DNA from: Spirochaetia bacterium
GTDB lineage: Bacteria > Spirochaetota > Spirochaetia > CADAEX01
Length of the DNA: 64,000 nucleotides
Direction of reading: 5' to 3'
NCBI GenBank assembly: GCA_963662795.1
Contig: OY759746.1
Coordinates: 896,001-960,000, forward strand
Part shown: in pieces, positions 3,896-23,246 of the stretch
How positions within the stretch are numbered: position 1 is the stretch's first letter
How the letters are laid out: each line of letters opens with the position of its first letter
Translations under genes and position numbers: made by a program
Notes under the pieces: model-generated
Database searches by the model: none
The model's input: only the letters and a program-made list of their open reading frames with translations
Told to the model about the DNA's origin: nothing

Positions 3896-3931
3896 CGAAT
3901 GTTGTTCGCTATTTTTTTTGAACGCCGTTCT
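3896..3931. promoter_or_regulatory. Tandem palindromic operator, site 1 (putative IclR site)
   Basis: cgaat-gtt-gttcg-N10-tgaac-gcc-gttct, with the same architecture at 16076 and 20234. Confidence 0.65.
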
Positions 3932-6165: not shown

Positions 6166-6321
6166 TAGGGCCCAGTATCATCCATGTTTTTCAGTTGGAA
6201 CCATTCTTATCCGAAAAGGCCATTTTGCCGATTTTTGAGTCTGATTTCCCAATTTTTCCAGTAATTAGATCTTGCGCCCCTAGATTATTTTTCCTACCAT
6301 TCATTTGGCAAACTTCCTGAT

Positions 6322-6350
6322 TTGATAAATTAGTATAATCAAACTATAAT
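6322..6350 (+). promoter_or_regulatory. Sigma70-type promoter of PP2C gene (probably leaderless)
   Basis: TTGATA-17 bp-TATAAT, then 7 nt, then the ATG at 6358. No SD. Confidence 0.6.
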
Positions 6351-6357
6351 TATAATT

Positions 6358-8452: not shown

Positions 8453-8717
8453 CCTTCCATGTATAGTTTGTTATACGGCAAAGATCCTATATCACTGTAG
8501 AATGAACGAATTTAACTCCTGTTTATAAAATATTTTATTGTTCTGAAAATTATTTTTTAATAATTGTTTTGTAGCTTTGCAGGCATTTAAAAAAACTTCC
8601 ATTAATTCTTAAGTAATAATTATTCCGTTATTCATTTTCTAATTAGTTATCAACTACAGGTAAAAATATTAGATACTGATTTATTTTTATTCTGATATAC
8701 TATCAATTTTTATATGA

Positions 8718-8924
8718 GGTTCTGTAATTATTACAAGTAATCACTCGGTAAAAGTTTGGGTTAAAACATTCGCAAACCATCAAATGGCTACTACTGTTAT
8801 TTTAGACCGTCTGTTTCATCGGTCTCATATATTCAACACAGAAGATAACAGTTACAGGTTAAAGGATTTTCAGCTCATGCAGCAAGGAGATAAGTCTGAA
8901 GAATCAGTGATTTTGAATTTGTAA
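8718..8924 (+). pseudogene. IS21-family IstB helper ATPase C-terminal remnant
   Basis: Hand translation GSVIITSNHSVKVWVKTFANHQMATTVILDRLFHRSHIFNTEDNSYRLK fits the IstB consensus S.I.TSN....W...F.....A.AILDRL.H.......G.SYR. Confidence 0.8.
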
Positions 8925-9207
8925 AACAAAGCGGCGATCTTTTTCCAAAGGAAGATTCTTCTTGACATTTATGGCCATTTACACAAATTATATTACAGGG
9001 TCTCTGTAAATTAAACTGTTTAACTGCATAATTCCAAATAAGTCTCATAGAGGCAAAAGATATAGAATAAGCAGTATTATGATGGATCAAAAAATTTTTA
9101 AATGACTTCGATAATCAATCAGAGTTATTTAATCCAAACTGCTTAGAATCAACTGTCCACTCTTCAGTGTCAAATTCACCGGTAGCTATTGAGGTTTTTC
9201 TGAAATT

Positions 9208-9990
9208 TTATTTGTCGCAAATATATAATTTAGATTCCGGATAGCCCATATTTTTAGAAATATTCAGTGCTGTGTCAACTACACACTCAGACATCTCTTT
9301 AAGCTTTTCATTTGTCAAAGTATATTTAATAGTTACAATACTTATTGCTGCTATAGGATCTGACAAATGGTTATAAATAGGAGCGGCAACACAATATATG
9401 CCTTCTTCATTTTCTTCATTGTCAATTGAAAAACCTCTTTCTCTGGTTTTTTTCAATTCTTCCTTTAAAACTGTTTTTTTTGTAATAGTTTTTTCTGTAA
9501 CTTTTGGAAGACCCCGTAATTTAATTATTTCATCACTTTTCGTTATTTTATAAGCTGACAACAAAGCCTTTCCCAGTCCAGTACAATGCATTGGAGCCTG
9601 CATACCTACTTCAAATACTGGCTGCAATGTTGCGCCAGTATGAACACTTTTATCCAAATAAACAATCTCACCTTTATTTTCAACAGCCAAAAAACCAATA
9701 GTATTAGTCTGTTGAGTAGCTTTCTCAAGATGAGTATGAGCTATTTTTCTTAAATTTATACTGTCCAAACATTTTGTTCCAATAATAAGTAATTTTATCC
9801 CCAGTGAATATAATTTAGTTCCATTATCTATTGTGTTTAAAATTCCCAAATCAGTCAAAGTCTGAAGTATTTCGAATATTGTTGTTTTTGGAGCATCTAT
9901 AACTTCATTTATTTCTGCAAGAGTTAAAGGTCTTCCTTCTTTTGAAATCAAATCGATTATTCTAAAAGTTCTGCTGATTGATTTATTCAT
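9208..9990 (-). CDS. IclR family transcriptional regulator
   Basis: N-terminal HTH (LTLAEINEVIDAPKTTIFEILQTL), PMHCTGLGKALL, and RGFSIDNEENEEGIYCVAAPI. Confidence 0.95.
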   Translation of the reverse strand: MNKSISRTFRIIDLISKEGRPLTLAEINEVIDAPKTTIFEILQTLTDLGILNTIDNGTKLYSLGIKLLIIGTKCLDSINLRKIAHTHLEKATQQTNTIGFLAVENKGEIVYLDKSVHTGATLQPVFEVGMQAPMHCTGLGKALLSAYKITKSDEIIKLRGLPKVTEKTITKKTVLKEELKKTRERGFSIDNEENEEGIYCVAAPIYNHLSDPIAAISIVTIKYTLTNEKLKEMSECVVDTALNISKNMGYPESKLYICDK

Positions 9991-10052
9991 TATTTATTCC
10001 CTTATTCTTTAAAGATAAAATAATCTGTATTTATTAGATTATAATTGTTTTA

Positions 10053-11714
10053 TTATGATAAGTCACCACTTAATACAGCCCCTTTCAAAATAGAGCCTAC
10101 ACACTTTTGATATATGCCAAGGTAACCTTTTTTAGGTTTTAATAGAATTTCAGCAGAAGAAATTCTTTTTTTCAGTTCATTGTCAGATAACTCGATATTG
10201 AGTTCACGTTTTTCAATATCAAAATTGATATAATCCCCATTCCTGACTGCACACAATGGACCGCGAAGAGCCGCTTCTGGAGAGGCATATCCAAAACATG
10301 CTCCTGCTGCTGCTCCAGAAAGACGTCCATCTGTTACAGTAACAACATCATCTTTTAAAGAACTTCCCTGTAATGCTGTTGTAAATGAATAAGCAGAACT
10401 TGGGCCTGCTTTAACTCCCTGGAATATTATAAAAACAACATCACCTTTTTCTATTTCACCGGATCTTAGAGCTTTAATAGCATCATCAGGATCATTATAA
10501 ACCTTAGCAAGTCCCCTGTATTTATGTAATTTTTTAGGAACTGCACTCTGTTTAATAAATGCACCCTCAGGGACTAAATTACCTTTACACAGAATAAGAC
10601 CACCGTCTGAATCAAGAGGATCTGCAACAGAATGAATAATACTATAATCTGATACTTTACAACCTCTGATATTATCTTCCATAGTTTTTCCAGTAACGGT
10701 TATCCCGGAATAATCTAGAAATTCGGTAAGTTCATTTAAAAGAGCAGGCGTACCCCCCGCTGTTTCAAAATCCTTCATGCAGTATGGACCATTTGGACGA
10801 ATACCAACAAGAAGAGGAACCTCACAACTAGCTTTTGAATAAATTGGAGCACATTCCATATCAAGTTCTGCTTCAGTAGCAACAGCTGGTACATGAATAA
10901 TTGTGTTTGCTGATCCTCCAATTGCCATGCATACTTTTATTGCATTAGTTATTGATGTTTTAGTTATTATTTTTCTGGGAGTAATATCATTCGCCCACAG
11001 TTCCATTACTTTTTTCCCTGCTTCCTTACTCAGTTTAATTAAATCACCTGAGCGGGCTGCTGTTGTACTGTTTCCGGGTAGACTCATTCCGATTGTTTCT
11101 GAGAGTATTGCCATTGTATTTGCAGTTCCCATCATTCCACATGCTCCCGCACCAGGACAAGCTACATTTAGGATTTCATCAAAATCTTCATTACTCATCT
11201 CACCGTTTTTTACCTTGGAAATGCTCGAACCAATATCAATAAAATCAATATACTTTCCATTTAATACAGCAGTTTTCATATACCCACCAGTTAAAATTAC
11301 TGATGGAATATCAATACGACCTGCAGCCATTAAAAGTCCTGGGATAATTTTATCACAAGTCCCAATCATAACAAGAGCATCCAAATCATGAGCACAAGCA
11401 ATGAGTTCAACTTCATTTACAAGAAGATCTCGGCTTGGGAGGACATATTTTCCTCCTCCTACACAGTCACAGAGATTTACACCATAAAATAAAAAAGGTA
11501 GTCCTCCTGATTCTACAATACCACACCTTGCCGCTTCAGCAAGTTCTTTTTGATGTATATGTCCTGGATTCATTTCATTCCATGTATTAATTATCCCTAT
11601 CCGTGGTTTTTTCATATCTTCATCACTATATCCAAGTCCTCTCATAAATGACCGTGTCCCCTGCCAGTCAAGAGTCATTTTATCTTCGATATCACTTTTA
11701 ATTTTTTTATACAT
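10053..11714 (-). CDS. IlvD/Edd-family Fe-S dihydroxy-acid/sugar-acid dehydratase (divergent)
   Basis: NPGHIH, TCDKIIPG, CPGAGACGMMGTANTM, AIGGSANT, GNLVPEGA and TDGRLSG..SPEAA motifs. The canonical GPGM.EM motif is replaced. Confidence 0.9.
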   Translation of the reverse strand: MYKKIKSDIEDKMTLDWQGTRSFMRGLGYSDEDMKKPRIGIINTWNEMNPGHIHQKELAEAARCGIVESGGLPFLFYGVNLCDCVGGGKYVLPSRDLLVNEVELIACAHDLDALVMIGTCDKIIPGLLMAAGRIDIPSVILTGGYMKTAVLNGKYIDFIDIGSSISKVKNGEMSNEDFDEILNVACPGAGACGMMGTANTMAILSETIGMSLPGNSTTAARSGDLIKLSKEAGKKVMELWANDITPRKIITKTSITNAIKVCMAIGGSANTIIHVPAVATEAELDMECAPIYSKASCEVPLLVGIRPNGPYCMKDFETAGGTPALLNELTEFLDYSGITVTGKTMEDNIRGCKVSDYSIIHSVADPLDSDGGLILCKGNLVPEGAFIKQSAVPKKLHKYRGLAKVYNDPDDAIKALRSGEIEKGDVVFIIFQGVKAGPSSAYSFTTALQGSSLKDDVVTVTDGRLSGAAAGACFGYASPEAALRGPLCAVRNGDYINFDIEKRELNIELSDNELKKRISSAEILLKPKKGYLGIYQKCVGSILKGAVLSGDLS

Positions 11715-11790
11715 TCAATCCCTCCGATAATTTAGAAATCAAGGATATTTTCAAAAACATATTCTTCCCTTTTTTCATAGTATTAGAATA

Positions 11791-11816
11791 TGATATTTTC
11801 CTGGGGGAAAATATCA
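11791..11816. terminator. Stem-loop between TRAP permease and dehydratase genes
   Basis: tgatattttcc-tggg-ggaaaatatca, a perfect 11-bp stem. Confidence 0.45.
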
Positions 11817-11827
11817 ACTTTGCAAAT

Positions 11828-13789
11828 TCAGTTAATGCTCCTATTTTTCTGCAATACTCTATTATTAGCCATATATTCACTAATTAAAATTAATGCAAAA
11901 ACAACGATACCGATAATATCTGTTTTCCATTCCGGAATAATTGTAAAAATCGCCATAATAAACAATAATGAAGATTTTAGCAAAGATAGTGGTTTAAATA
12001 TATATCTTTCAAATGAAAAAACCATCATATAGGTAGCCAATATTGTAGTTATAAAAGTTTCCAGAAAAATAATTAAATTAAAATTAATAAAAATTAGAGA
12101 TGGTTCATAAATAAAAACAAAAGGTATTATGAATGAAGGCAATGCCATTTTCATTGCCAACCAACCAACAGCTCCTGGATTCGCTCCTGCAAGTGCCGCC
12201 GCGGCATAAGATGGAACAGCAACGGGAGGCGTTATACATGCAAGTATTCCAAAATAAAAACAGAAAAAATGAGCTGCTATTATAGGAACTCCCATTTTCA
12301 CCATGACAGGAGCTGCAACTGTTGCCAGAACCATATATACAGCAACTGTAGGCATTCCCATTCCCATTATAATTGACATAATCATTACAAGAATTAATGA
12401 AAGTAAAAGAGACCCTTTGCTTAGCATTAAAATATAATTACCCAGAATTACACCAACACCTGTTAAAGTAGTAACTCCAATTATTATACCGACACAGGCA
12501 CATGCAACACCGAAGGACACAACTTTTTTCCCAGATTCAGTTAACGCATTGATAATATCCACAAAAGACATTCTGGTTAGTTTTCTGCTTTGAGCCATAA
12601 TAATGCTTAGTACGATACCCCAGAGAGCTGCATAGGATATTGTATACTGCATGATTATCAGATAGAAAGTTACAATAAAAGGAATCAACAGGTGTCCTCT
12701 TTCAAAAAAAGCTTTTTTGGCATTTGGAAGTTCATTTTTAGGAATACCATTTAAGCCGAGTCTTTTTGCTCTGTAATGAACAGTGAGAAGTGTACTAAAA
12801 TAAAATAAAAATCCTGGAACAATTGCAGTCAGCATTATCCGCCCGTAAGGAACACCAATATATTCAGACATTATAAAACATGCTGCTCCGAGTACCGGAG
12901 GTATAAGCTGTCCTCCTGTAGAAGCACAGGCCTCTGTAGCTGCAGAAAATTCAGGTGAATATCCTACACGTTTCATCAGAGGTATCGTAAAAGCACCAGT
13001 TGTGACAACATTGCTTGCAGCTTGTCCGCTTATAGTCCCGAAACATGCGCTGGCAAAAACAGCCACCTTGGCAGGTCCTCCGCTTGTATGTCCGGTTAGT
13101 GCAAGTGCGATATCCTGAATAAAAACTCCTAATCCGCTTTTACTTAAAATTGTACTAAAAATTACAAAAAGAGATATAAAAGTAGCAGCCGCCCCAAGTG
13201 GTATTGAAAATATTCCTTCAGGTATCATAAAAAGATGATTAGTAAGCCTAAAAATACTTCCGGCTTTTATTCTGAATATACCAGGTATATAATTACCAAA
13301 ATATGCATAAACCAAAAAAACGATAGTCACTCCAGCCAGAGCTTTACTCACTAATCTCCTTGTTGCTTCCAATATTAAAACAATTAAAATTACATTTGCA
13401 AGCTGATCCTGGAATTCAGATATTCCCATTTTCAGTAAAATTGATTTATAAGCAAAAAACACATATGAGCCGATAACTAAACTCAATAATGCAAATACAT
13501 AATCATACCAGGGTACCGGTTTAGCAACATTTTTATGATTCATTGGATATAGAACAAATGCCAATACCATAACAGCAAGCAGAAAAAGAGATCTTTGTTG
13601 CAGTGCTGGAAGTTGTCCGAAAAATCCTGTAAAGAGAAGAAATATTGAAAGAGAAAATGAAATAACATTAATAATTTTCTTAAGTATATTATTACTAATC
13701 CTTGTATTTTCTTCTTTTGAGTATTTTTTTAATATTTTTTCATCTTCCTTTAAAATATTTGTATTTTTTTTATAAGAAATATCTGTCAT
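11828..13789 (-). CDS. TRAP transporter fused permease (4TM/12TM, TAXI-associated)
   Basis: 653-aa polytopic protein with GGPAKVAV.AS..FGTISG, STGGQL.PPV.GAA.F.M, GMGMPT..Y and TPPVA motifs. Confidence 0.93.
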   Translation of the reverse strand: MTDISYKKNTNILKEDEKILKKYSKEENTRISNNILKKIINVISFSLSIFLLFTGFFGQLPALQQRSLFLLAVMVLAFVLYPMNHKNVAKPVPWYDYVFALLSLVIGSYVFFAYKSILLKMGISEFQDQLANVILIVLILEATRRLVSKALAGVTIVFLVYAYFGNYIPGIFRIKAGSIFRLTNHLFMIPEGIFSIPLGAAATFISLFVIFSTILSKSGLGVFIQDIALALTGHTSGGPAKVAVFASACFGTISGQAASNVVTTGAFTIPLMKRVGYSPEFSAATEACASTGGQLIPPVLGAACFIMSEYIGVPYGRIMLTAIVPGFLFYFSTLLTVHYRAKRLGLNGIPKNELPNAKKAFFERGHLLIPFIVTFYLIIMQYTISYAALWGIVLSIIMAQSRKLTRMSFVDIINALTESGKKVVSFGVACACVGIIIGVTTLTGVGVILGNYILMLSKGSLLLSLILVMIMSIIMGMGMPTVAVYMVLATVAAPVMVKMGVPIIAAHFFCFYFGILACITPPVAVPSYAAAALAGANPGAVGWLAMKMALPSFIIPFVFIYEPSLIFINFNLIIFLETFITTILATYMMVFSFERYIFKPLSLLKSSLLFIMAIFTIIPEWKTDIIGIVVFALILISEYMANNRVLQKNRSIN

Positions 13790-13822
13790 TTTTTCCCCTC
13801 AGCGGTATTTCTGTTTCCTGAT

Positions 13823-13861
13823 AATTATGCAAAGAAAGATATAATCTTTCTTTGCATAATT
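13823..13861. terminator. Perfect 18-bp-arm hairpin downstream of TAXI SBP gene
   Basis: aattatgcaaagaaagat-ata-atctttctttgcataatt. Confidence 0.65.
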
Positions 13862-13863
13862 TT

Positions 13864-14844
13864 TTATTTTAATAGTCCAACTTCTTTATAATATCTGATT
13901 GCTCCTTCATGAAGAGGCACAGTAAGCCCATTAAGAGCATCATTAATTTTCAGATCTTTTATAGCAGCATGATATGACTTTAAATCATCCAGATCTTCCC
14001 AGATTGTTTTTGTTATATTATAAATAAGTTCTTCATCAACATCTTCTCTTGTAAGAAAAGTTGTTGCATTAGCAACTGTTATAATATCTTCTTTCTGATT
14101 TTTATATGTTCCAGCAGGAATAGTAGCAGGGAAATATACTGATGTTTTTCCTTCAGTCAATTTTCTTATTGTATCAGAAGGCATAGGTATTATCTTGGCT
14201 TTATTTATTGATGTCACCTCAACAAATGCAGAAAACGGAAGAGGTGTTAATGCAAGAGCACCATCTGCATGTGCATCTTTTATCTGTTCTACACCTTCGT
14301 TAGTTCCAACATATTCAGGTTTAAAATCATCAAATGTCATACCAAATGCACCATATATTCGTTCAGCATTGGCAACATCTCCACTGCCAGGGCCTCCAAC
14401 AACAAGTTTCTTTCCCCTAAGATCATCAAATGAGTCTATGTCAGCTCCAGTTCTTACAAGCTGCTGAAAATAAGCTGCATACATAAATGTAATTGCCCGG
14501 GCTTCATTATAAGGCGTATCCTTAAAACTTCCCTGTCCATTAGCTGCATCCAGAGCTACACCTGCAGAAACAACAGCAACATCTATTTCTTTATTTTTCA
14601 TAAAAAGAATATTTTGCCCGCTTCCTGTTGTTGGTAATACTGAAAAATTACCAAGTTCATGCTTATTAAAAAACTGCATAAACACATTTGACATTGCATA
14701 ATATACACCGCCTGAAGATCCGCCACCAATTGAATAAATTCTGTCATCACCTTTTGCGGCAGAATCTTCTTTTTCCCCTCCAGCAAACAACATCACACTT
14801 GCAAATAAAGTGATAATCAGGATTAAACACAATGCTTTTTTCAT
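13864..14844 (-). CDS. TAXI-family TRAP solute-binding protein
   Basis: GGGSSGGVYY, TTGSGQNI, DLRGKKLVVGGPGSG, IPAGTY and PLHEGAIRYYKE motifs. Confidence 0.93.
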   Translation of the reverse strand: MKKALCLILIITLFASVMLFAGGEKEDSAAKGDDRIYSIGGGSSGGVYYAMSNVFMQFFNKHELGNFSVLPTTGSGQNILFMKNKEIDVAVVSAGVALDAANGQGSFKDTPYNEARAITFMYAAYFQQLVRTGADIDSFDDLRGKKLVVGGPGSGDVANAERIYGAFGMTFDDFKPEYVGTNEGVEQIKDAHADGALALTPLPFSAFVEVTSINKAKIIPMPSDTIRKLTEGKTSVYFPATIPAGTYKNQKEDIITVANATTFLTREDVDEELIYNITKTIWEDLDDLKSYHAAIKDLKINDALNGLTVPLHEGAIRYYKEVGLLK

Positions 14845-14897
14845 TTTTTCCTCCTAATGAAAAACGTAATATTTTTAATATTTTTAAAAAATATTAT

Positions 14898-15974
14898 TTA
14901 AGAAATAATTTCATATATTTCTGAAATACTTTTCCCAGCAAGGCCCAGTTTTTCGACGGTTCTTCCTTCTTTATATAAATCCCGGCCTGTAGCAATACTT
15001 CCAATTTTTATAAAAGAATTTATTATCGGAGTGTCAATATTTAAAGTAATGGCAAAAGAAGACAAGGGGACAAGCCCATTTAAAATATCTTCAATGATGA
15101 ATCTATGATTATAATTATCAGGAGAGTTTACTCCTACGTAAGCTTTGTTATTCTGCAGCAGTTCGTATAAATTATCACCTTCAAGGTTATACACAGCTTT
15201 TAATGTATTAATTAATGAATCAAGTGATAAACCTAAAGCATCTGCAACTTTAAGTCTTTCATTATCTGCTTTCTCAATAAGTTTAGATATATTTTTTGTA
15301 ATACCTTCCATATAATAATCAAAAGACTGTCCTGAATCAATTTTATTCATATTCATTAAAGTCGGTATTGGATGAAGCATTGCTCCGGCACTGTTAAAAC
15401 TTGTTATTAATACATTTTCGACTGCTATAAATTTTGGAATTGCGGGGTCAATTATTTCAATCAGTTTTGCAGCATCAGTTGCAGGTATAGTTGCAACTTT
15501 TGTTTTGTTTTTTATTCCGGAATGATAAACAAAACCAGGTTCTGATGTTCTGCATGCATATAAAAGATCAGCAGCTTCACCTATGATTATGTTTTCCTTA
15601 CTGCCTCTAGATTTAACTATTTTACTAAATTCAAGAGCTCCACCAATATGACCTGGGTTTAGTAAAATAACTTGACCGTTTTTAAGATTGGGAATAATTT
15701 TTGCAGCAATTTCAGAATGAACATCAGTAGTTGTCATTACCATTACAACGTCTGCATCTTTAACTACTGCGTCAAAATCATCAGTAACAATCTCGGGGAA
15801 TCCTTCAGCCTCAATTGCGCCTGTTATCTTTATCACTCCAAGTTTATTTAAAACATCAACTTTATTTTTATCTTTTTCATGCAGCCTTACATTGTATCCA
15901 TCTTGAGACAGTATTGCAGCCATAGACTGCCCTCCGGCTCCGGCTCCTATGACAGCAAATTTCAAATCTTTCAT
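14898..15974 (-). CDS. NAD/NADP-dependent opine/octopine/nopaline dehydrogenase family protein (copy B)
   Basis: Same motifs as 2771..3853 (GAGAGG, LNPGH.GGALE, HPIP, YYMEGIT, HRF..ED...GLVP, EGRT.EKLG). SD GGAGG. Confidence 0.9.
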   Translation of the reverse strand: MKDLKFAVIGAGAGGQSMAAILSQDGYNVRLHEKDKNKVDVLNKLGVIKITGAIEAEGFPEIVTDDFDAVVKDADVVMVMTTTDVHSEIAAKIIPNLKNGQVILLNPGHIGGALEFSKIVKSRGSKENIIIGEAADLLYACRTSEPGFVYHSGIKNKTKVATIPATDAAKLIEIIDPAIPKFIAVENVLITSFNSAGAMLHPIPTLMNMNKIDSGQSFDYYMEGITKNISKLIEKADNERLKVADALGLSLDSLINTLKAVYNLEGDNLYELLQNNKAYVGVNSPDNYNHRFIIEDILNGLVPLSSFAITLNIDTPIINSFIKIGSIATGRDLYKEGRTVEKLGLAGKSISEIYEIIS

Positions 15975-16075
15975 AATTAACCTCCAGTAGCTTCTTTAGA
16001 TATTCTGTTACAATATAGTTTATCATTCTTCAAAAAGCATTATAACACAGTATCATATTTTTACAATCTTTTTTT

Positions 16076-16109
16076 CGAACATTGTTCGTTTATTAATGAA
16101 TAGCGTTCG
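16076..16109. promoter_or_regulatory. Tandem palindromic operator, site 2 (putative IclR site)
   Basis: cgaac-att-gttcg-N8-tgaat-agc-gttcg, lying between back-to-back -35 boxes (TTGTAA at 16061-16066 minus; TTGACA at 16118-16123 plus). Confidence 0.7.
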
Positions 16110-16117
16110 GTTATTTG

Positions 16118-16146
16118 TTGACAATATAGCTTTCTTTAAATAGAAT
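16118..16146 (+). promoter_or_regulatory. Sigma70-type promoter of FGGY kinase
   Basis: TTGACA-17 bp-TAGAAT, followed by SD GGGAGGAG and a TTG start. Confidence 0.7.
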
Positions 16147-16169
16147 GTTTTCAAAGGGAGGAGAATAAA

Positions 16170-17483
16170 TTGAATATTCTTTCAATGGATTTTGGCACAT
16201 CTTCTCTGAAACTTGCTGTTTTGGATGATTACTCTAATATAATTGAGTCTGTAAAAGAAAATTATGATCTGTATATTCCAACCGCGAACCAAATTGAAAT
16301 AAAAGCAGAAGATATAATTAATGCCATGCTGTCGGCATTAAAAAAACTAACTACTGATTTAAAATCTATTGACGGACTATGTTACGATACATTTTCGCCT
16401 TCAGTTGTTTTTATGGATGAAGATGGAATTCCCTATTATCCTATCATAACCCATTTAGACAGAAGAAGTATAAATGAAAGTAATTTTATTTGTAAACATT
16501 TTGGAACTAATTCATTTCATAATCTGACAGGGACTCTGCCATTTCCTGGAGGAACTTCTATAACTTCAATATTCTGGGTTAATAATAACTTAAAAAATAT
16601 TTTTAATTCTGCATATAAAATAGGACATCTAAATACATTTATTCATAAATATTTAACGGGCCTTTGGGGAATTGACACTGTTAATGCTTCAATGACAGGA
16701 ATATACAATACAATAAAAAACGACAACTGGTCAGATGAACTTCTCAAAATGATTGATCTATCCGAAGACAAGCTTCCGGATATCAAAAAACCAGGGGAAT
16801 CTTTCGGAAATTTAAACAATCAGGAAATTATTTCACTTGGCATAAAGAAAGGAATACCGGTATGCATGGGTACAAATGACATTGCGGCTGCCCAAATCGG
16901 TGCTGACAATAACTCTGCAGGAGATATACTACAAGTAAGCGGTAGCAGTGATATGATTTCAATTTTAACAGACAAACCTGTTACTAATCAGTCGTATTAC
17001 CTAAGGTGTTCTGCAAATGAAAACCTCTGGCAGATTTTTGCTATTACCTCATCGGGATTTGCGCTCGAATGGATAAGAAAAGAACTTTTTCGTGAAATTG
17101 ACATTGATTTCTTTTATTCTGAAAACATTATGAATGCATTAAAAACAGGTCCTAATAACGTTATTTATCATCCCTATATTTCAGGAGACAGACAAAGTCT
17201 GGAAGTTAAAAAAGGTATATTTGAAGGAATAGAATTAAATACAACAAGAGAAAACATGCTTGCCGCACTAATTATTGGATTTCATGTGCCTATTATAACA
17301 ACTTTAAAAACAGCTGAAAATTTCATTAAACTGAATAAAAATTTAAAATGTACTGGCGGTTTGACTAAAAATGAAAATATTATTAATTACAAAAAAAATG
17401 TATTTAATAATTATGATATTCAGGTAGTCGACGAATGCCCATTAATAGGTAATGCAAAACTCTGGATATTAAATAATACCTGA
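16170..17483 (+). CDS. FGGY-family carbohydrate kinase (xylulokinase/gluconokinase-like)
   Basis: DFGTSSLK, HLDRRS, NASMTG, GTND.AAAQ.G, PYISGDR and TGG motifs. Confidence 0.88.
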   Translation: MNILSMDFGTSSLKLAVLDDYSNIIESVKENYDLYIPTANQIEIKAEDIINAMLSALKKLTTDLKSIDGLCYDTFSPSVVFMDEDGIPYYPIITHLDRRSINESNFICKHFGTNSFHNLTGTLPFPGGTSITSIFWVNNNLKNIFNSAYKIGHLNTFIHKYLTGLWGIDTVNASMTGIYNTIKNDNWSDELLKMIDLSEDKLPDIKKPGESFGNLNNQEIISLGIKKGIPVCMGTNDIAAAQIGADNNSAGDILQVSGSSDMISILTDKPVTNQSYYLRCSANENLWQIFAITSSGFALEWIRKELFREIDIDFFYSENIMNALKTGPNNVIYHPYISGDRQSLEVKKGIFEGIELNTTRENMLAALIIGFHVPIITTLKTAENFIKLNKNLKCTGGLTKNENIINYKKNVFNNYDIQVVDECPLIGNAKLWILNNT

Positions 17484-17689
17484 AGCCGGATAAAACACCG
17501 GGCACAGCCTGAATCGCTTCTAAATTACAGTTTTCACAAAACAAGAAGGAGAAATTGCTACAACAACCGACAGGAATCTGCAACTACCTTGCTGGTTTTT
17601 GGAAAACATGTGATTTTCACACTTCAAAGATATGTTGTCCCACAATGTTTGTTGAGCTGTTGATATTCAAAACCTATAGATCACAAAAG

Positions 17690-18420
17690 ATTTCATACAA
17701 TCTGGAAAACCCAATAGTCACGGAGCATTATTCCATATTTTAATCCACCATTTCCTTGAGTGGTAAACATTTTTTATCCTACGTGTATATAATCGTTAAT
17801 ATTTTTTCGAAATACATTTTGTTCTTAGAGAAACCTCTGCTTTAACAGAAATGGAGATGTTTCTTGCATAATGTAGATACCCAGGACAAACAGGAATTCC
17901 TCATTAATTGCAATCATTCCTATATGAATCAGAACAGTGTTTACGACAAACCTCCCCGAGAGCAAACGTTTAATATCCATATCTGGATTTAAGCTCATAA
18001 TTAAATTGCTCACTTGTTCCATGAGCATGATAAAGCGCTACTACAGCTTCCGGTGTTTTCAAATAAACTGGTGCAAAAAGTTCCTATTTCAAACTCAGGA
18101 AAAAACAACTTGTTATCATCCTTATCTACACTTGTTAGTTACTTTAAACACGATATACATTGTTGAAAGTGTTTAATTCGAAATTGAGTACAACCGGTGT
18201 GAATACTGGTAAACATCGTCTTTCTACTGATATTCCAAATTATTTCTCTTTCTACTTTTGCCGCATCAAGCCAATTTTCGTCGGATTTTTTACGAATATT
18301 GCACTTGGCAAAAAATATTTTGCCTGAGACAAGTATCATGACAGCTTTAGCCATCATAGTTTTACAGTGTTATAATTTCATCATTTGGTCTATCCAGGAT
18401 GATTTTTCACAACAACTTAA
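17690..18420 (-). pseudogene. IS1380-family transposase remnant (ends approximate)
   Basis: Minus-strand fragments KCNIRKKSDENWLDAAK, FFPEFEIGTFCTSL and VVALYHAHGTSEQFNYELKS/DMDIKRLLSGRF..N resemble the IS1380 motif LYH.HGTSEQF.SE.K.DMDLERLPSGKF..N. Frameshifted. Confidence 0.75.
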
Positions 18421-18542
18421 TCGGTATTTCGCATCATGGCTGTCCAAAATAAATAATGGAAGCTACTATTAATAGACTGAAACCTTTGCTATAATAAATT
18501 AAACAACCACGCTAATTTGTTACAAACAAAGGAGATCAGACT

Positions 18543-18895
18543 GTGGGCTTCAAGGATAGCATATTCAGACAAATACTTCAAATCCTTCCGGAATATGATT
18601 TTGAAAAAACTGTTGATAAAAAAAGAAGTCATAAACTCAAGTTTAAAATTCCTCTGTACAGTGTTGGTGCAACAAGCCTTGATCTGCGTCTTACCATGTA
18701 TGACTGGGCACACTTCAGAAAGAAAAAGGGAGAAATAAAACTTCATGTAAAACTTGATCACAGCGGCTATATTTCATCTTTTATAATGCAAACTTCTTGA
18801 TGATAAGCCGCTTGACCGTAGAATAAAATATAATCCAGTATTACGTTGGAGTTGTTATGGTTTATTTTGAACAGCTATGATTTTGCATATTTTTC
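18543..18895 (+). pseudogene. IS4-family transposase remnant (internally deleted; right end approximate)
   Basis: N-terminal SIFRQILQILPEYDFEK is fused directly to DLRLTMYDWAHFRKKKGEIKLHVKLDHSGY, the IS4 WA.FR..KG.IKLH motif. Confidence 0.75.
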
Positions 18896-18953
18896 AATCC
18901 AATCATTCTCCCGGAATATTAATATGGCTTATCTTTGCAAGAGCTTCTCTATT

Positions 18954-20150
18954 TTAAACATATTTGCATAATGCTTTCTCAATATTAAGCATACATTTTT
19001 CAAGAATTATTCTGGGACAAGCGACATTTATTCTTTCAAATCCCGAACCTGCTTCTCCAAACATATAACCTTCATCGAGTGCAACTCGTGCATCGAAAAG
19101 CATTATATCTTCCAACTCATCGTTAGTTAGAAAATATTTAGTGAAATCAAGCCAGACTAAAAATGTTCCTTCAGGATTTGACATATTAATTAAAGGTAAT
19201 TTTTCATTTATGAAATTTCTTAGAAAATCAACATTAGTATCGATGTATTCATTAACCTGGTCAAGCCATTCTTCACATTTACTATAAGCTGCTTCACATG
19301 CAACAATACTTAGAGGATTAATAAAACTGAATCCGTTTTCAACTTCTACATGTTTAATCCATTTTTTCCTTAATTCCGGTGAATTAATAATAATGTTTGA
19401 TATCTGCAACCCGGCAATATTGAAAGTTTTACTTGGAGCAGTACATGTTATAATTTTGTCTTTGTATTCAGGATATATTTTTTCAATTGGATAATGTTTA
19501 ATATTATTTCTTACAATATCACAATGTATCTCATCAGAAATTATCCATTTATCATACTTTTCACATAGTTCTGCTGTTTTTTTTAGTTCTTCCACCTTCC
19601 ACACCCTTCCTACCGGATTATGGGGACTGCACAATAAAAATATTTTATTACCTTTATCTTTAAGTTTTGCTTCAAGATCATCAAAATCAACACCATAAGA
19701 CCCGTTTTTATATATCAGATTATTATTTACAATTCTACGATTTTTATTTTTAATTTTTTCTTTAAAAGGATAATAAACAGGTTCTTGAATTATTACACCA
19801 TCATGCTCCTCTGTTAATATTGATATAAGAAAACTGATAGCAGGAACAATTCCAGGAGAATTATAAATGCTGTCTTTATTAATATTCCAGTCAAATCTTT
19901 TTCCAAACCACCGGCAAACACTATCATAATAAGCTTCTGATTTGTTTATTGAATAACCTAATATTTTTTTATCAACTCTATCATGAAGAGCTTCTATTAT
20001 TGGGGGCGCACATTCAAAATCCATATCTGCAATCCACAGCGGAAGAACATCCTTTGGAGCTTTTTTAAAAAAATTATTGAGATAGTCCCATTTAAGACTA
20101 TCTGTCCCTTTTCTTGCAACAAGTATGTCAAAATTATAATTCAACCTCAA
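18954..20150 (-). CDS. MalY/PatB-family PLP-dependent C-S lyase / class I-II aminotransferase
   Basis: RKGTDSLKWD, LPLWIADMDF, LCSPHNPVGRVW, ISDEIH, APSKTFNIAG (PLP lysine) and RINVACP motifs. Confidence 0.93.
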   Translation of the reverse strand: MRLNYNFDILVARKGTDSLKWDYLNNFFKKAPKDVLPLWIADMDFECAPPIIEALHDRVDKKILGYSINKSEAYYDSVCRWFGKRFDWNINKDSIYNSPGIVPAISFLISILTEEHDGVIIQEPVYYPFKEKIKNKNRRIVNNNLIYKNGSYGVDFDDLEAKLKDKGNKIFLLCSPHNPVGRVWKVEELKKTAELCEKYDKWIISDEIHCDIVRNNIKHYPIEKIYPEYKDKIITCTAPSKTFNIAGLQISNIIINSPELRKKWIKHVEVENGFSFINPLSIVACEAAYSKCEEWLDQVNEYIDTNVDFLRNFINEKLPLINMSNPEGTFLVWLDFTKYFLTNDELEDIMLFDARVALDEGYMFGEAGSGFERINVACPRIILEKCMLNIEKALCKYV

Positions 20151-20218
20151 ACCTCTATTTCTTGCTTATTAGTCATTGTTAAAAATACTGAATGTATATT
20201 AGCACACAACATAACATC

Positions 20219-20268
20219 TGTCCATATAAAATACGAACTTTGTTCGTGTTTTATATGGACATTATTCG
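20219..20268. promoter_or_regulatory. Operator site 3 embedded in a 43-bp palindrome
   Basis: tgtccatataaaatacgaac-ttt-gttcgtgttttatatggaca has 20-bp arms with 1 mismatch (20219-20261) and contains cgaac-ttt-gttcg-N9-tggac-att-attcg. Confidence 0.75.
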
Positions 20269-20320
20269 CTATTAATAACTTTCGGATTGACTAATGATTA
20301 ACCCTCCATTAAACTTAATA

Positions 20321-21184
20321 ATGATGGAAACTAAAACACTAAGCGACAATAAAAAACTGGCTTTCATTTATATGTTTATATCTGCTGTATTCTTCACTTT
20401 AATGAGTACAGCCGTCAAATATGGAAGTGATATATCATTTATTCATAAAGTTTTTTTCAGAAATTTCATCACATTTTTAATGATATTTTTTTTAATTCAC
20501 AAAAAAAATATATCTATTTGTTTTAATATTAATAAATATTTTTATCTTTTAGTATTAAGAGCCTTAACAGGTTTGGCAGGTGTTCTTTGTTATTTCTATG
20601 CACTAAAAGATATCCCTCTTGCTGATGCCTGTATTCTTAATAAACTTTCTCCATTTTTTATAATTATTTTTTCTAGTCTATTTCTAAAAGAAAAAATCAA
20701 TAGAAATACTTTCTTTTTAATTGTTATTTCATTTATCGGAACTGTTTTAATTATTAAGCCAGCTTTTCACATGGCACTATACCCAGCTTCAGGAGCTGTT
20801 TTATCGGCATTTTTTGCCGGAATATCATATACAATTATAAGATCATTAAAAAAGATAGAAAAGCCTGAAATAATTATATTATATTTTTCAGGTATTTCAT
20901 CATTGCTTTTGCTTTTTCCATCATTTTTAACATTTAAAAGTTATAATTATATTCAATTATCAGTTCTATGTTTAATTGGCATATTTGCTACAGGTGGTCA
21001 ATTCTTTTTAACAAAAGGATTTCAGGTTTATAACGCGGGAGAAATTTCAATAGTCAGTTATTCACAGATACTTTTTTCCTTCATCATTGATATTTTCCTT
21101 TTTAAGGAATTCCCTGACTTTTATTCTTTGACTGGAGGTTGTCTGATAATAATAAGCGGAATAATATTTTATTTGAAAAAATAA
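20321..21184 (+). CDS. EamA/DMT-family transporter
   Basis: About 10 TM segments in two EamA repeats (VFFRN, LSPFF..LFLKEKI). The start is moved from 20294 to 20321 because TTGACT-17-TAAACT (20287-20315) overlaps the upstream ATG. Confidence 0.88.
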   Translation: MMETKTLSDNKKLAFIYMFISAVFFTLMSTAVKYGSDISFIHKVFFRNFITFLMIFFLIHKKNISICFNINKYFYLLVLRALTGLAGVLCYFYALKDIPLADACILNKLSPFFIIIFSSLFLKEKINRNTFFLIVISFIGTVLIIKPAFHMALYPASGAVLSAFFAGISYTIIRSLKKIEKPEIIILYFSGISSLLLLFPSFLTFKSYNYIQLSVLCLIGIFATGGQFFLTKGFQVYNAGEISIVSYSQILFSFIIDIFLFKEFPDFYSLTGGCLIIISGIIFYLKK

Positions 21185-21263
21185 TGAAAAGATCATATCA
21201 ATACAGATGAAGATACGATAGTTCTTGAGTCTTAATAATTTGTCTTTAAAAAGGAGAAGAAAA

Positions 21264-22169
21264 ATGAACAATCCAAAAAGAATGCTTTCGGGTGTGTTTT
21301 CACCGAACTGTACTCCATTTATAAATGATAAAGTTGATTATTATGGAATAGAAAAAAATATTGAAAAATTAAATCGATCAGAGCTGAAAGGATATTTTGT
21401 TCTTGGTACAAACGGAGAATTTAAAGCACTTACCGAATCTGAAAAATTTAAAGTCCTTAAAACTTATATCAAATATTCATGCGATAATAAAATTATTATG
21501 GCTGGCACAGGGTGTGAAAGTACTTACGAAACAATTAAAATGACAAAAAAAGCAGCTGATATGGGTGCAAAATTGGTAAGTCTCTTAATGCCTAATTTCT
21601 TTGTAAATAAAATTAATGCAGATGTTATGGTTTCACATATTATAGAAGTAGCAGACAACTCTCCTGTCCCTGTGGTTCTTTATAATAATCCGTCAGTTGC
21701 AGCGGGAGTAACTATTACTACAGATGTAATAAAAAGAGTAAAAGATCACCCGAGTGTTGCTGGGATTAAAGACAGTTCAAATGACACATGGCCTGAAATA
21801 GTAAAATATGATTCAGAAGATTTTTCAGTACTTGCAGGATCTGCAGGATACTTTTTTGAACTTCTTGAAGCAGGGGGTACAGGGGGAGTTCTTTCCCTTG
21901 CAAATGTATTTCCCGATTCATGTGCAAAACTCTACAGACTTTATACAAGCGGAAGCACGGAGAAAGCGAGGAAGCTTAAGGATGACCTTGTATCATTAAA
22001 CAAAAAGGTTTCAGGAAGCTATGGAGTTGAAGGAGTCAAATATGCAATGGAACTTGCCGGTTTTTCAGGGGGTAATCCACGAAGACCTCTTAAAGCACTT
22101 ACAGACGATCAAAAAAACTCTGTTGAAAAAGACCTTAAAGAAAGCGGATTTTTAAATCATAGAAAATAA
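21264..22169 (+). CDS. DHDPS/NAL-family class I aldolase, 4-hydroxy-2-oxoglutarate aldolase (HOGA)-like
   Basis: GTNGEF (HOGA-type G.NGE rather than the DapA GTTGE), AGTGCEST, PVVLYN, GIKDS (Schiff-base Lys), FSVLAGSAG and GGV.SLANV. SD AAGGAG before the ATG at 21264. Confidence 0.85.
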   Translation: MNNPKRMLSGVFSPNCTPFINDKVDYYGIEKNIEKLNRSELKGYFVLGTNGEFKALTESEKFKVLKTYIKYSCDNKIIMAGTGCESTYETIKMTKKAADMGAKLVSLLMPNFFVNKINADVMVSHIIEVADNSPVPVVLYNNPSVAAGVTITTDVIKRVKDHPSVAGIKDSSNDTWPEIVKYDSEDFSVLAGSAGYFFELLEAGGTGGVLSLANVFPDSCAKLYRLYTSGSTEKARKLKDDLVSLNKKVSGSYGVEGVKYAMELAGFSGGNPRRPLKALTDDQKNSVEKDLKESGFLNHRK

Positions 22170-22332
22170 TTTATCAGAATCCTTTAAGTTTAAAATTAAT
22201 TGCGTTCTTTTAACAGTCTCCTAAAGCACGTTTTTTTAGGTAATCATGATACAAAAAGGCCAAGTTACGGTATAAAAGTCGTGTCAAAACAACCAGGCAG
22301 AAAAGAAGGCTTTGAAAAAAAGGTATAACATA

Positions 22333-22762
22333 ATTAATTGACGGCGGAACAGTCTATATTAACTCGGCAGAAAACAATCGGGTTTACAGATTGAGAGGCG
22401 GTCCACTCGAACAGATTACCGAAGACCAGTCTCTTGTTTGAAAATACTACAGGTCTGAAAAAATGACAAAAGAGGAAATAAGAAAGCACCCCAGAAATAA
22501 TATTCTCACCTGCGCACTTGGATCAGACGCGGACATGCTGCCGAACAGTATTGAAAGCTACAGGCTTGATGCTGAAGATAATGATCTGTATCTTCTCTTC
22601 AGCGACGGACTAAGCGTCATGTTAAGCGACATGGAAATGGAAGATATTCTTGTGATGGATGGGTCTGTTGATCATATCGTTAACAAACTTCTTGTAGCGG
22701 TAATGGAAAGCGGCGGCAGGGGTATTATTTCCTTAATACTTGTTAAAAGTTGATTTTTTATA
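22333..22762 (+). pseudogene. Truncated duplicate of PP2C phosphatase 3' end (direct repeat copy 2)
   Basis: Colinear with 6702..7131. It has a TGG->TGA nonsense at 22439-22441, GDSR changed to ENNR, GGRDN changed to GGRGI, and no 5' half. Confidence 0.9.
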
Positions 22763-22763
22763 G

Positions 22764-23246
22764 TTATTTAAGCTTATCCTTTGAATGTTCAAAAAATGAG
22801 ATAATCCGGCTTTCGTCAAGAAATTCCGGAGCCGCATCAGGTACACCCTTGTAATAGATTTCCATTCCCGGTTTCTTTTTTGAATCTTTTTTCCCGTAAA
22901 AAAGAAGAGTCATTTCAGACATATTCAGAAAAGATCCGTAATCCCGTTTGATTATATTTTCATCTTTAAGTTTTTTATACTTAACAAGGATCTCTTCTTC
23001 TTTCGAGAATACATTGGAAGCAATAGCGCTGTATCTGGTATATTTCATCTCTTTCACGCCAAGCGGGACTATGTTGATATAAACAATATTGGAACTAACG
23101 TCAGAACCTTTCAAAACCGCCCAGAAAACAGCTATATCCTCAGCTTTAAATATATAATCAGCGCCATAGTAAGTATTATCCTGGGAATAGCCGGGTACTG
23201 TTAATATGATAAAAAATAGTACTGCCATTATTGCCGTTTTTTTCAT
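22764..23246 (-). CDS. Hypothetical exported protein, last gene of ABC operon
   Basis: 160 aa with a signal peptide and SD GGAG, 7 bp downstream of the ATPase gene. Confidence 0.7.
   Translation of the reverse strand: MKKTAIMAVLFFIILTVPGYSQDNTYYGADYIFKAEDIAVFWAVLKGSDVSSNIVYINIVPLGVKEMKYTRYSAIASNVFSKEEEILVKYKKLKDENIIKRDYGSFLNMSEMTLLFYGKKDSKKKPGMEIYYKGVPDAAPEFLDESRIISFFEHSKDKLK

Follow-up and report, generated by a model that had tools for sequence, protein, structure and literature searches.

Two parallel opine dehydrogenase modules and a kinase-aldolase pair in inserted DNA of a Spirochaetia bacterium: a candidate IclR-controlled catabolic regulon

The window analysed here is a stretch of 64,000 nucleotides (positions 896,001 to 960,000 of contig OY759746.1, GenBank assembly GCA_963662795.1) from a Spirochaetia bacterium of the lineage CADAEX01, whose 3.9 Mb genome is a single contig and 98% complete. 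Between positions 9,208 and 22,169 of the window lie nine genes, encoding an opine dehydrogenase (OdhB), a TAXI solute-binding protein with its fused TRAP permease, an IlvD/Edd-family dehydratase, an IclR regulator (IclR1), an FGGY-family kinase (FGGY1), a pyridoxal phosphate (PLP)-dependent lyase (PatB1), an EamA transporter and an aldolase resembling 4-hydroxy-2-oxoglutarate aldolase (HOGA). A preliminary description, made from the letters of the sequence, had read them as a possible pathway for an opine-like conjugate. By the open reading frame (ORF) listing and by Pfam and NCBIfam scans, all nine genes were found where that description had placed them and in the families that it had named (Table 1).

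Gene content of the locus

OdhB is an opine dehydrogenase of the type represented by CENDH of Arthrobacter (PDB 1BG6), which it matched with 269 bits (E = 6e-79). On PF02317 (cut-off 30) it scored 133.5 bits, and its paralog Odh2, described below, scored 126.8 bits, so that both carry the CENDH-type domain. The Arthrobacter strain from which CENDH comes had been enriched on an N-carboxyethyl amino acid. The GxGxxG motif is invariant in the 25 aligned members of the Odh family, and the catalytic positions are kept: His201 and Arg291 in all 25, and Asp296 in 24 (one has Glu). These residues of OdhB align to His202, Arg292 and Asp297 of 1BG6 and are the same in Odh2; the arginine is the neighbour of the His-Asp dyad. 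A catalytic His-Asp dyad of opine dehydrogenases is named in PMC10787698, where double mutants of the Arthrobacter enzyme (ArODH) also show that the residues at positions 111 and 198 decide whether hydrophobic (Ala/Asn) or acidic (Arg/Gly) amino acids are preferred. The equivalent positions are His and Gly here, each in 21 of the 25 family members, so that a polar or anionic amine is a better candidate for the substrate than a hydrophobic amino acid. The N-terminal domain of Odh is similar to ketopantoate reductase; matches to solved 2-dehydropantoate reductases have E ~5e-5 and 26 bits.

The dehydratase belongs to the IlvD/Edd superfamily by its domains (ILVD_EDD_N 341 bits, ILV_EDD_C 165 bits), and its alignment with relatives has invariant Cys, CDK and TDGRxSG-type columns. 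The preliminary description had allowed that the enzyme might prove to be an ordinary dihydroxy-acid dehydratase. This is not what was found: it scored 514 bits on TIGR00110 (IlvD; cut-off 618), while a separate, genuine ilvD of the host genome (G000:3661253-3663013) scored 773 bits. It also stays below the cut-off of the YjhG/YagF D-xylonate dehydratases (TIGR03432, 210 bits against 808). IclR1 carries the IclR-family domains, and its top NCBIfam matches, BhcR (177 bits, cut-off 350) and KdgR (142 bits, cut-off 275), place it in neither equivalog.

The binding protein and the fused permease score as a TAXI-type TRAP transporter. Solved relatives of the binding protein include the L-glutamate-specific VcGluP (8S4J, 150 bits), and a ligand often found in the TAXI family is a dicarboxylic amino acid (PMC12344293). 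An inverted repeat in the gap between the two genes has a 3-nt loop and a T-rich tail, and this stem-loop could raise the level of the binding protein above that of the permease. FGGY1 is a member of its superfamily only (FGGY_N 136 bits) and falls in no xylulokinase, gluconokinase or glycerol kinase equivalog, the best being XylB with 182 bits against a cut-off of 380. The closest solved relatives of PatB1 are C-S lyases (B. subtilis PatB 338 bits, cystalysin 333 bits). The aldolase has human HOGA as its best solved relative (192 bits, against at most 114 bits for dihydrodipicolinate synthases, DHDPSs) and stays below the cut-off of DapA (TIGR00674, 160 bits against 206), and the label "HOGA-like" given earlier is therefore retained. 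Likewise the 1.5 kb between FGGY1 and PatB1 can be called debris of insertion sequences (IS), as the preliminary description had it, because 21 partial, diverged copies of it occur elsewhere in the host genome; it also has a weak DUF4372 match. In an Rfam scan of positions 1 to 30000 of the window no RNA family reached its gathering score, and a promoter scan gave 73 promoter-like sites against 71.9 in shuffles, with the best site at 16118-16146.

Table 1. Features of the two modules and of the inserted DNA (window coordinates unless marked as genome coordinates)
Feature	Position	Strand	Remarks
Remainder of module 2 (OppBCDF, PatB2, UxaA-type dehydratase, IclR2)	genome 888683-896467		upstream of the window
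SBP_bac_5 binding protein of an Opp-type ABC importer	629-2161	-	Pfam
Odh gene remnant, C-terminal piece	2238-2450	-	residues 262-349, 3 stops; weak Octopine_DH match
Odh2, second CENDH-type opine dehydrogenase	2771-3853	-	49% identical to OdhB
Operator-like pair	3896-3931		upstream of Odh2; CGAATGTTGTTCG (1 mismatch) and a 2-mismatch site 23 bp off (3919)
FGGY2 pseudogene	3991-4566	+	divergent from Odh2; tblastn
Transposase fragment (rve_3)	4665-5021	-	Pfam
51-nt direct repeat, right edge of insertion 1	6307-6357		96% identical to genome 888546-888596
Insertion 2	8447-22763		~14.3 kb; absent from G001; contains the whole of the nine-gene locus
IclR1 regulator	9208-9990	-	Pfam/NCBIfam; 74% identical to IclR2
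IlvD/Edd-family dehydratase	10053-11714	-	divergent paralog; not the housekeeping ilvD
Fused TRAP permease (TAXI type)	11828-13789	-	TIGR02123 618 bits (cut-off 321)
Perfect 18-bp stem-loop	13823-13861		gap between binding-protein and permease genes
TAXI solute-binding protein	13864-14844	-	TIGR02122 269 bits (cut-off 84)
OdhB, CENDH-type opine dehydrogenase (Octopine_DH family)	14898-15974	-	Pfam; PDB 1BG6 match
Putative operator pair	16076-16109		OdhB/FGGY1 intergenic region; exact CGAACATTGTTCG and a 2-mismatch site 21 bp off (16097)
FGGY1 kinase	16170-17483	+	full length for the ~440-aa subfamily; divergent from OdhB
Decayed IS remains	17484-18953		1.5 kb without a long ORF; weak DUF4372 match
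PatB1, PLP-dependent cysteine-S-conjugate beta-lyase family	18954-20150	-	TIGR04350 433 bits (cut-off 340)
Palindrome with 20-nt arms	20219-20261		PatB1/EamA intergenic region; exact putative operator core CGAACTTTGTTCG
EamA/DMT-family transporter, probable exporter	20294-21184	+	Pfam/NCBIfam; divergent from PatB1
HOGA-like DHDPS-family aldolase	21225-22169	+	Pfam/NCBIfam
PP2C 3' end, broken second copy at the right border of insertion 2	22337-22765	+	residues 113-254, with stops

A second module, a common palindrome and inserted DNA

The system is larger than the preliminary description had it. A parallel module (module 2) lies upstream and extends past the start of the window; this second paralogous module, a decayed second FGGY gene and the nature of the region as an insertion were all absent from that description. 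The operon of module 2 reads Odh2, SBP_bac_5 (SBP5), OppB, OppC, OppD, OppF, a PatB-like protein (PatB2), a UxaA/GarD-type dehydratase and IclR2. Of FGGY2 there remain residues 1-193, 44-62% identical to FGGY1, with two stops and a frame change, and an IS fragment truncates the gene. The DNA around the transposase fragment (4570-6357) recurs at three other places in the genome with 69-74% identity. IclR1 and IclR2 are 74% identical, PatB1 and PatB2 40%. The arrangement of an FGGY gene divergent from Odh, importer, dehydratase and IclR is hence present twice in the genome, with different importer and dehydratase families: TAXI-TRAP and IlvD-like in module 1 (the operon from OdhB to IclR1), an Opp-type ABC importer and UxaA-like in module 2, together with the PatB-type beta-lyase. 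Among the solved relatives of SBP5 (5U4O 215 bits, E. coli YliB 171 bits, Haemophilus HbpA 133 bits) the closest, 5U4O, is an uncharacterised protein; the agropinic-acid binder AgaA stands lower in the list, and nickel/metallophore binders are related at 75-88 bits. The genome has a third, distant Odh paralog (782187-783233, ~30% identical) with a DctM-like stretch upstream and no ATP-grasp context, and relatives of this paralog occur in G005, G008 and G011, which are genomes of the same family.

That both divergent regions share the same operator had been proposed before, and the palindrome itself is borne out. CGAAC-N3-GTTCG occurs exactly at 16076, between OdhB and FGGY1, and at 20234, between PatB1 and EamA; two exact sites in the window compare with 0.01 expected, none of 100 shuffles gave two, and the 3.9 Mb genome holds only four. 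At both Odh promoters a strong site is followed by a weaker one 21-23 bp apart (16076/16097 and 3896/3919). In a relative of the same family (locus L112, described below) an exact and a 1-mismatch site, 22 bp apart, lie in the intergenic region between aldolase-IclR and FGGY, and at more distant IclR loci (L155-157) a 1-mismatch site lies between the IclR and dehydratase genes. The remaining two exact copies in the host genome adjoin a TetR locus (L090:8771-13933, ~3.371 Mb). There, TetR is followed by LolA-like, DUF1302-like and MMPL genes, and the exact sites precede the LolA-like and the MMPL genes. These palindromes probably belong to TetR; the locus was considered as part of a wider regulon and rejected, being judged to serve another regulator.

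Both modules are insertions with respect to the same-genus genome G001 (81% complete), whose alignment gives a precise empty site. In G001 the AcrB-OEP, PP2C-MFS and downstream ABC genes are contiguous at 91-93% identity, and no match to OdhB was found in this 81% complete genome. The two insertions sit on either side of the PP2C-MFS pair. Insertion 1, of ~13.7 kb, consists of module 2 and IS debris and is bracketed by the 51-nt direct repeat. Insertion 2 has a GC content of 0.30-0.35 against ~0.43 in the flanks, and at its right edge lies a broken copy of the PP2C gene with 84% DNA identity to the intact one, which suggests that it entered by recombination with DNA of a related strain. Inside its left edge (~9002-9090) an 89-nt element was noticed, which has four genome copies at 84-87% and a fifth, weaker match at 77%, and which is possibly a small repeat of the kind of miniature inverted-repeat transposable elements.

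Such surroundings raise the question of whether there is a single system at all. Mobile DNA may have placed unrelated catabolic genes together, and the palindrome may have arisen by chance in AT-rich promoters. The region is indeed made up of two insertions strewn with IS remains, the core of the palindrome is found at the unrelated TetR locus as well, and the Odh module and the kinase-aldolase pair stand apart in most genomes. Chance would, however, have to produce the same architecture twice with regulators 74% identical, two exact sites where 0.01 are expected, the putative operator at the equivalent position in L112, and the independent joining of the same families in Paratissierella and in a Bacillota genome (next section). 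We regard a chance mosaic as improbable.

Linkage of the Odh modules and of the kinase-aldolase pair in other genomes

The preliminary description had asked for a search of gene neighbourhoods. With OdhB as a single sequence, a search for loci gave 118 pattern matches, none of them confirmed; an alignment-based search gave 79 loci, 78 of which have an OdhB match over at least half its length. These comprise a near clade of 42 loci, with Odh at least 44% identical to OdhB, and 36 distant loci. At 34 of the 42 near loci Odh has a dehydratase gene within 8 kb (IlvD in 14, UxaA-type in 18, SDH_alpha in 7, some loci having more than one), and at none of the 36 distant ones; because the loci are kin and the split at 44% is defined by the query, the counts are to be taken as a pattern and not as a statistical test. 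The other neighbours of the near group within the same distance are SBP5 (19), EamA (15, at 28-37% identity), TAXI (9), IclR (8), PatB (7), FGGY (1) and HOGA-like genes (0). Carriers other than the host span Bacillota and Synergistota, namely Oscillospiraceae, Lachnospiraceae, Sedimentibacter, Paratissierella and Aminivibrio (Synergistota). The regulators at the modules are of the IclR, LysR or GntR types, and many of the loci have a TRAP or DcuC importer in place of Opp. On the side of Odh, then, the expected conservation was observed: the set Odh-importer-dehydratase, often with EamA, recurs.

A quick maximum-likelihood (ML) tree, with support from the Shimodaira-Hasegawa-like approximate likelihood ratio test (SH-aLRT), places both paralogs of the window in a clade of 40 rows (SH-aLRT 98), within which subclades track the dehydratase family. 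Odh2 falls in a 17-row UxaA/Opp clade (SH-aLRT 99); a 9-row IlvD clade (SH-aLRT 94) has EamA in 9 of 9 rows and TAXI in most; and an 8-row clade (SH-aLRT 100) goes with SDH_alpha. The dehydratase of the island is 59-72% identical to the Odh-linked copies. In a sample of 151 genomes of the family to which the L013 genome belongs, a copy of at least 70% identity was present only in the two genomes already known to carry Odh-TAXI-TRAP-IlvD; the next best reached 49% and all others at most 43%. In a reverse search from the dehydratase alignment, 78 of 80 loci among the matches listed are distant IlvD-family members of at most 41% identity.

Several arrangements beside these were seen. At L027-L029, L033, L039 and L042, Odh stands beside two SDH_alpha-domain proteins (~429 and ~525 aa), DctPQM and GntR, which is the simplest version of a module of Odh plus eliminase. 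In the distant Odh clade (Atribacterota, Tepidanaerobacter, Tissierellia) Odh lies between a D-Ala-D-Ala-ligase-like ATP-grasp gene and a gene for a ~548-aa protein without a Pfam match (L054, L057, L062, L065, L071, L072, L081-L083, L089 and others, near position 10001). In relatives from Tissierellia and Clostridium ultunense, Odh is preceded by PTA, an acetate-kinase-like gene and a 2-oxoacid:ferredoxin oxidoreductase of three subunits.

The partners of Odh could also be read in the direction of synthesis. The dehydratase (here with the aldolase) would then yield pyruvate or another 2-oxo acid, Odh would condense it with an amino acid while NAD(P)H is reoxidised, and EamA would export the opine; marine invertebrates form opines under anoxia for just such a re-oxidation. 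The IlvD, UxaA-type, two SDH_alpha-type and PatB families all turn beta-substituted 2-hydroxy or 2-amino acids into 2-oxo acids, which are co-substrates of Odh. EamA accompanies every row of the IlvD subclade and 15 of the 42 near loci, the carriers, judged by their names, are fermentative anaerobes, and in two genomes (G041, G042) the module stands alone, without kinase or aldolase. Yet sugar acids, being oxidised from the start, would leave little need for such a redox sink; Odh comes first after the promoter, beside the importer; and the varied importers, of the peptide/opine-type Opp and glutamate-type TAXI kinds, suit an amino-dicarboxylate better than a simple hydroxy acid. Moreover, to our knowledge no opine is on record as a fermentation product of bacteria of this kind, although no dedicated search was made. 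We think it quite unlikely that Odh works as an electron sink here.

The importers of module 2 and its relatives bring to mind opine-type metallophores such as staphylopine and pseudopaline, for which Odh would make the chelator, EamA would export it and Opp would re-import the metal complex. The combination of Odh, EamA and an SBP_bac_5 importer akin to nickel/metallophore binders resembles the cnt loci in this respect. But a CntL-like gene (nicotianamine-synthase-like, PF03059) was not found genome-wide at E <= 0.01, and on its absence from a single-contig genome that is 98% complete this reading was rejected; in a control search the family was found in 1 of 14 reference genomes. The regulators are not metal sensors, Opp gives way to TRAP and DcuC at many loci, Odh is of the short CENDH type, and the dehydratases, kinase and aldolase would have no explanation. 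A metallophore system is thus disfavoured as highly improbable.

On the side of the kinase, the ~440-aa FGGY subfamily was traced to 78 loci, and a homologue of the aldolase is present at 57 of them, often directly downstream, so that FGGY and the HOGA-like gene form a conserved pair. Their neighbours are dehydratases of the enolase-superfamily, UxaA and IlvD types, 2-hydroxyacid dehydrogenases, short-chain dehydrogenases/reductases (SDRs) and RpiB, and further a split transketolase, class II aldolase, TRAP or ABC importers and IclR or GntR regulators. This company suits a plain acid-sugar pathway, in which Odh would be a 2-oxo/2-hydroxy-acid oxidoreductase, for example one that reduces a 2-keto-aldonate to the aldonate, followed by dehydratase, FGGY kinase and aldolase. 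The order of steps is chemically complete; IlvD/Edd and UxaA are families of acid-sugar dehydratases; acid-sugar clusters are the home of the kinase-aldolase pair, and a comparable position in them is often taken by a 2-hydroxyacid dehydrogenase or an SDR; Odh has the reductase-like N-terminal domain mentioned above; and the layout is like that of E. coli yiaJ-yiaK-S (IclR, TRAP, reductase and FGGY) and of its xylonate genes. Against this, OdhB is far nearer to CENDH than to the reductases (269 against 26 bits) and keeps the His, Asp and Arg of opine dehydrogenases. The PatB C-S lyase, integral to module 2 and present at 7 of the 42 near loci, the SDH_alpha-type partners of 7 loci, and the glutamate-type TAXI relatives, Opp-type importers and EamA exporters would all stay unexplained, and G041 and G042 carry the module without kinase or aldolase. 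On balance we judge the acid-sugar explanation unlikely.

In a few genomes the two blocks, or parts of them, are found together. The contig of Paratissierella segnis BX21 (L114, L037) has all the families in a single cluster on one strand: IclR, a PanB-like protein, class II aldolase, HAD, FGGY, a HOGA-like aldolase and OppBCDF, and further on an IlvD-like dehydratase (62% identical), SBP5, Odh, Odh, an enolase-superfamily gene and a third Odh. The Odh paralogs there are 375, 375 and 358 aa long, and the cluster also contains an SBP5 fragment. A Bacillota metagenome-assembled genome (MAG), at L011, has Opp, a UxaA-like dehydratase, Odh, IclR and FGGY together. In a Spirochaetia MAG of the family of the host (L112:5214-15977), TIM and a long FGGY gene are followed on the minus strand by IclR (84% identical) and the aldolase (81-83%), with a short FGGY, a sodium:alanine-family symporter, a class I/II aminotransferase, an HpcH aldolase and a LysE exporter divergent from these two. 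L112 looks like an Odh-free version of the regulon that is amino-acid linked too.

Interpretation and comparison with known systems

The reading that we favour, with slightly less than even confidence, is that of a horizontally acquired, IclR-controlled catabolic regulon in which Odh splits an imported opine-like N-(carboxyalkyl) compound, a dehydratase or lyase makes 2-oxo acids, and a kinase-aldolase trunk takes them further. From the gene content, the duplicated architecture and the conserved linkages we infer which chemical steps take place and in what order, in which direction Odh works, what the effector is and that IclR binds the palindrome, as follows. The regulon would be built from a trunk and two feeder modules, each of the latter comprising a high-affinity importer, an NAD(P)-dependent CENDH-type Odh, a dehydratase that makes a 2-oxo acid, and its own IclR. 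First, an anionic, amino-acid-like N-(1-carboxyalkyl) compound, chemically an opine, would be imported. Secondly, oxidative cleavage of the C-N bond by Odh would release an amine or amino acid beside a 2-oxo acid. From the hydroxylated or thio-substituted piece the dehydratase or the PLP lyase may then make a 2-oxo or 2-keto-3-deoxy acid, which FGGY kinase and HOGA-like aldolase, by analogy with 2-keto-3-deoxygluconate (KDG) kinase and 2-keto-3-deoxy-6-phosphogluconate (KDPG) aldolase, would convert to pyruvate and a C2/C3 unit. What is left over, an amine, thiol or amino acid, would be removed by EamA. The IclR proteins are predicted to repress the three divergent promoters through CGAAC-N3-GTTCG, and their effector is probably the shared 2-oxo-acid intermediate, as for KdgR.

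What speaks for this catabolic regulon is that the same architecture with closely similar IclR proteins is present twice; that the palindrome stands at corresponding places here and in L112; that near relatives of Odh are linked to dehydratases, the one of the island belonging to a rare subfamily; that kinase and aldolase form a pair; that P. segnis and L011 have the families in contiguous clusters; that the CENDH match, the Odh residues, the glutamate-type TAXI relatives, the PatB family and the context of L112 all hint at an amino compound; and that importers and regulators of the IclR, LysR and GntR types give the modules a catabolic flavour.

A number of observations weigh against it. Relaxed matches to the palindrome (1-2 mismatches) number 12 in the window against 13.9 expected, so that the argument for the pair upstream of Odh2 rests on its position, and two of the four exact copies in the genome adjoin the TetR locus. 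Odh is present at only 2 of the 78 FGGY loci, and at none of the 78 Odh loci is there a HOGA-like gene within that distance of 8 kb. The two genomes G041 and G042, which bear the names Oscillibacter sp. and Neopoerus faecalis and whose completeness was not reported, have Odh-TAXI-TRAP-IlvD-EamA, but a close match was found neither to FGGY (none, or 26%) nor to the HOGA-like aldolase (28%). The near group of Odh loci was set by identity to the query and its members are kin, the tree comes from a quick search rather than a careful one, and the placement of OdhB in it is unsure because of its long branch (0.62). Known substrates of IlvD- and UxaA-type dehydratases are 2,3-dihydroxy acids, and no chemically complete series puts such an enzyme directly after the cleavage of an opine; the step order given above is a guess. 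Odh could be a plain oxidoreductase, because a 2-hydroxyacid dehydrogenase or SDR often holds a similar place in Odh-free kinase-aldolase clusters, and the constant presence of EamA in the IlvD subclade fits export of a product as well as of a by-product.

It follows that the blocks are separable: in some lineages the Odh module does without the trunk, and in most the trunk does without Odh. The claim of conserved co-occurrence therefore held within the Odh module, within the kinase-aldolase pair and in the P. segnis cluster, but failed for Odh and kinase together (2 of 78 loci) and in G041 and G042. For the same reason a single linear chain, opine cleavage and then an Entner-Doudoroff-like breakdown, as first proposed, is not shown by the data.

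A wider proposal is possible but distinctly tentative. Modules of Odh and a beta-eliminase (of the IlvD, UxaA or serine-dehydratase type, often with PatB, an importer and EamA) may form a widespread, undescribed class of anaerobic pathway for N-(1-carboxyalkyl) amino compounds, of which this spirochaete would have captured two horizontally and wired them, under a KdgR-like regulator, to a kinase-aldolase trunk. Candidate substrates for such a class are secondary-amine dicarboxylates of diet or environment, for example carboxyethyl or carboxymethyl amino acids and sugar-acid opines. Carboxymethyl-lysine was considered as the specific substrate and dropped; it is kept only as an example of the class, because carboxymethyl-lysine alone needs no dehydratase, kinase or aldolase. 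As context, Oscillibacter and Cloacibacillus are reported in PMC9501902 as degraders of carboxymethyl-lysine by pathways that are little known.

In our literature searches no paper was found that joins opine dehydrogenase with carboxymethyllysine, none that joins it with a TRAP transporter and a dehydratase, no novel-pathway paper that joins FGGY, the dihydrodipicolinate synthase family, 2-keto-3-deoxy and dehydratase, and none that describes such a system; broader searches brought up enzymology papers only, with nothing of relevance apart from PMC10787698 and PMC4575208. Bacterial CENDH-type opine dehydrogenases are used as biocatalysts. Here they gain a reproducible set of genomic partners in at least three phyla (importer, 2-oxo-acid-forming dehydratase or lyase, and often an exporter), and the host genome holds two versions of the module under one putative operator together with the kinase-aldolase trunk. 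If the class of Odh with beta-eliminase exists as proposed, it would be the first physiological role of CENDH-type bacterial opine dehydrogenases in anaerobes, and if the substrates are N-carboxyalkyl amino acids derived from food or host, it would bear on the breakdown of glycation products in the gut, for which microbial pathways are little reported (PMC9501902). If Odh is a plain oxidoreductase, the locus would be an ordinary variant of an acid-sugar pathway.

Compared with known enzymes, OdhB (358 aa) has the fold of CENDH/ArODH, the N-(1-D-carboxyethyl)-L-norvaline dehydrogenase of Arthrobacter sp. 1C (359 aa; 1BG6). It is like the acid-preferring mODHs (Telek et al. 2024, PMC10787698) in having Gly at ArODH position 198 and His at position 291, whereas position 111, which is His in OdhB, is occupied by Ala in ArODH and by Arg in the mODHs; the parts of that paper covered here give no gene context or physiological role for ArODH or the mODHs. 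With the staphylopine/pseudopaline cnt systems the modules have in common an opine dehydrogenase, an Opp/NikA-type importer and an exporter, which in Pseudomonas is of the EamA type; they differ in the lack of CntL in the genome, in the Odh subtype and the regulators, and in the added catabolic enzymes.

The Agrobacterium Ti-plasmid occ/noc systems, with a membrane-associated flavin opine oxidase (OoxAB) and LysR regulators, share binding-protein uptake of N-(carboxyalkyl) amino acids, oxidative C-N cleavage, location on acquired DNA and a substrate-responsive regulator, features which for the present system are proposed from its genes. Instead of these, an NAD(P)-type Odh and IclR are present here, together with dehydratases, kinase and aldolase, and domain scans gave no flavin oxidase family among the genes of either module.

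The earlier statement that no characterised pathway joins these families holds for the full set, but part of it is known: the E. coli D-xylonate clusters yjhIHG and yagEF-yagI combine an IclR-type regulator, an IlvD/Edd xylonate dehydratase and a DHDPS-family 2-keto-3-deoxy-xylonate aldolase, the last giving, as may be the case here, pyruvate and an aldehyde. That set has no Odh, TAXI or Opp importer, PLP lyase, EamA or FGGY kinase, and the dehydratase of the island is not an equivalog of YjhG/YagF (210 bits, cut-off 808). In regulatory logic the proposed system comes close to the KdgR regulon of enterobacteria, where KdgR, the kinase KdgK and the aldolase KdgA/Eda form a trunk and the feeders converge on 2-keto-3-deoxygluconate: an IclR-family repressor would in both cases preside over a kinase-aldolase trunk and several feeder operons. 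It is distinguished from that regulon by a regulator below the KdgR cut-off (142 against 275), by a kinase of the FGGY and not the PfkB family, by an aldolase that is DHDPS/HOGA-like rather than Eda, and by the opine dehydrogenases in its feeders.

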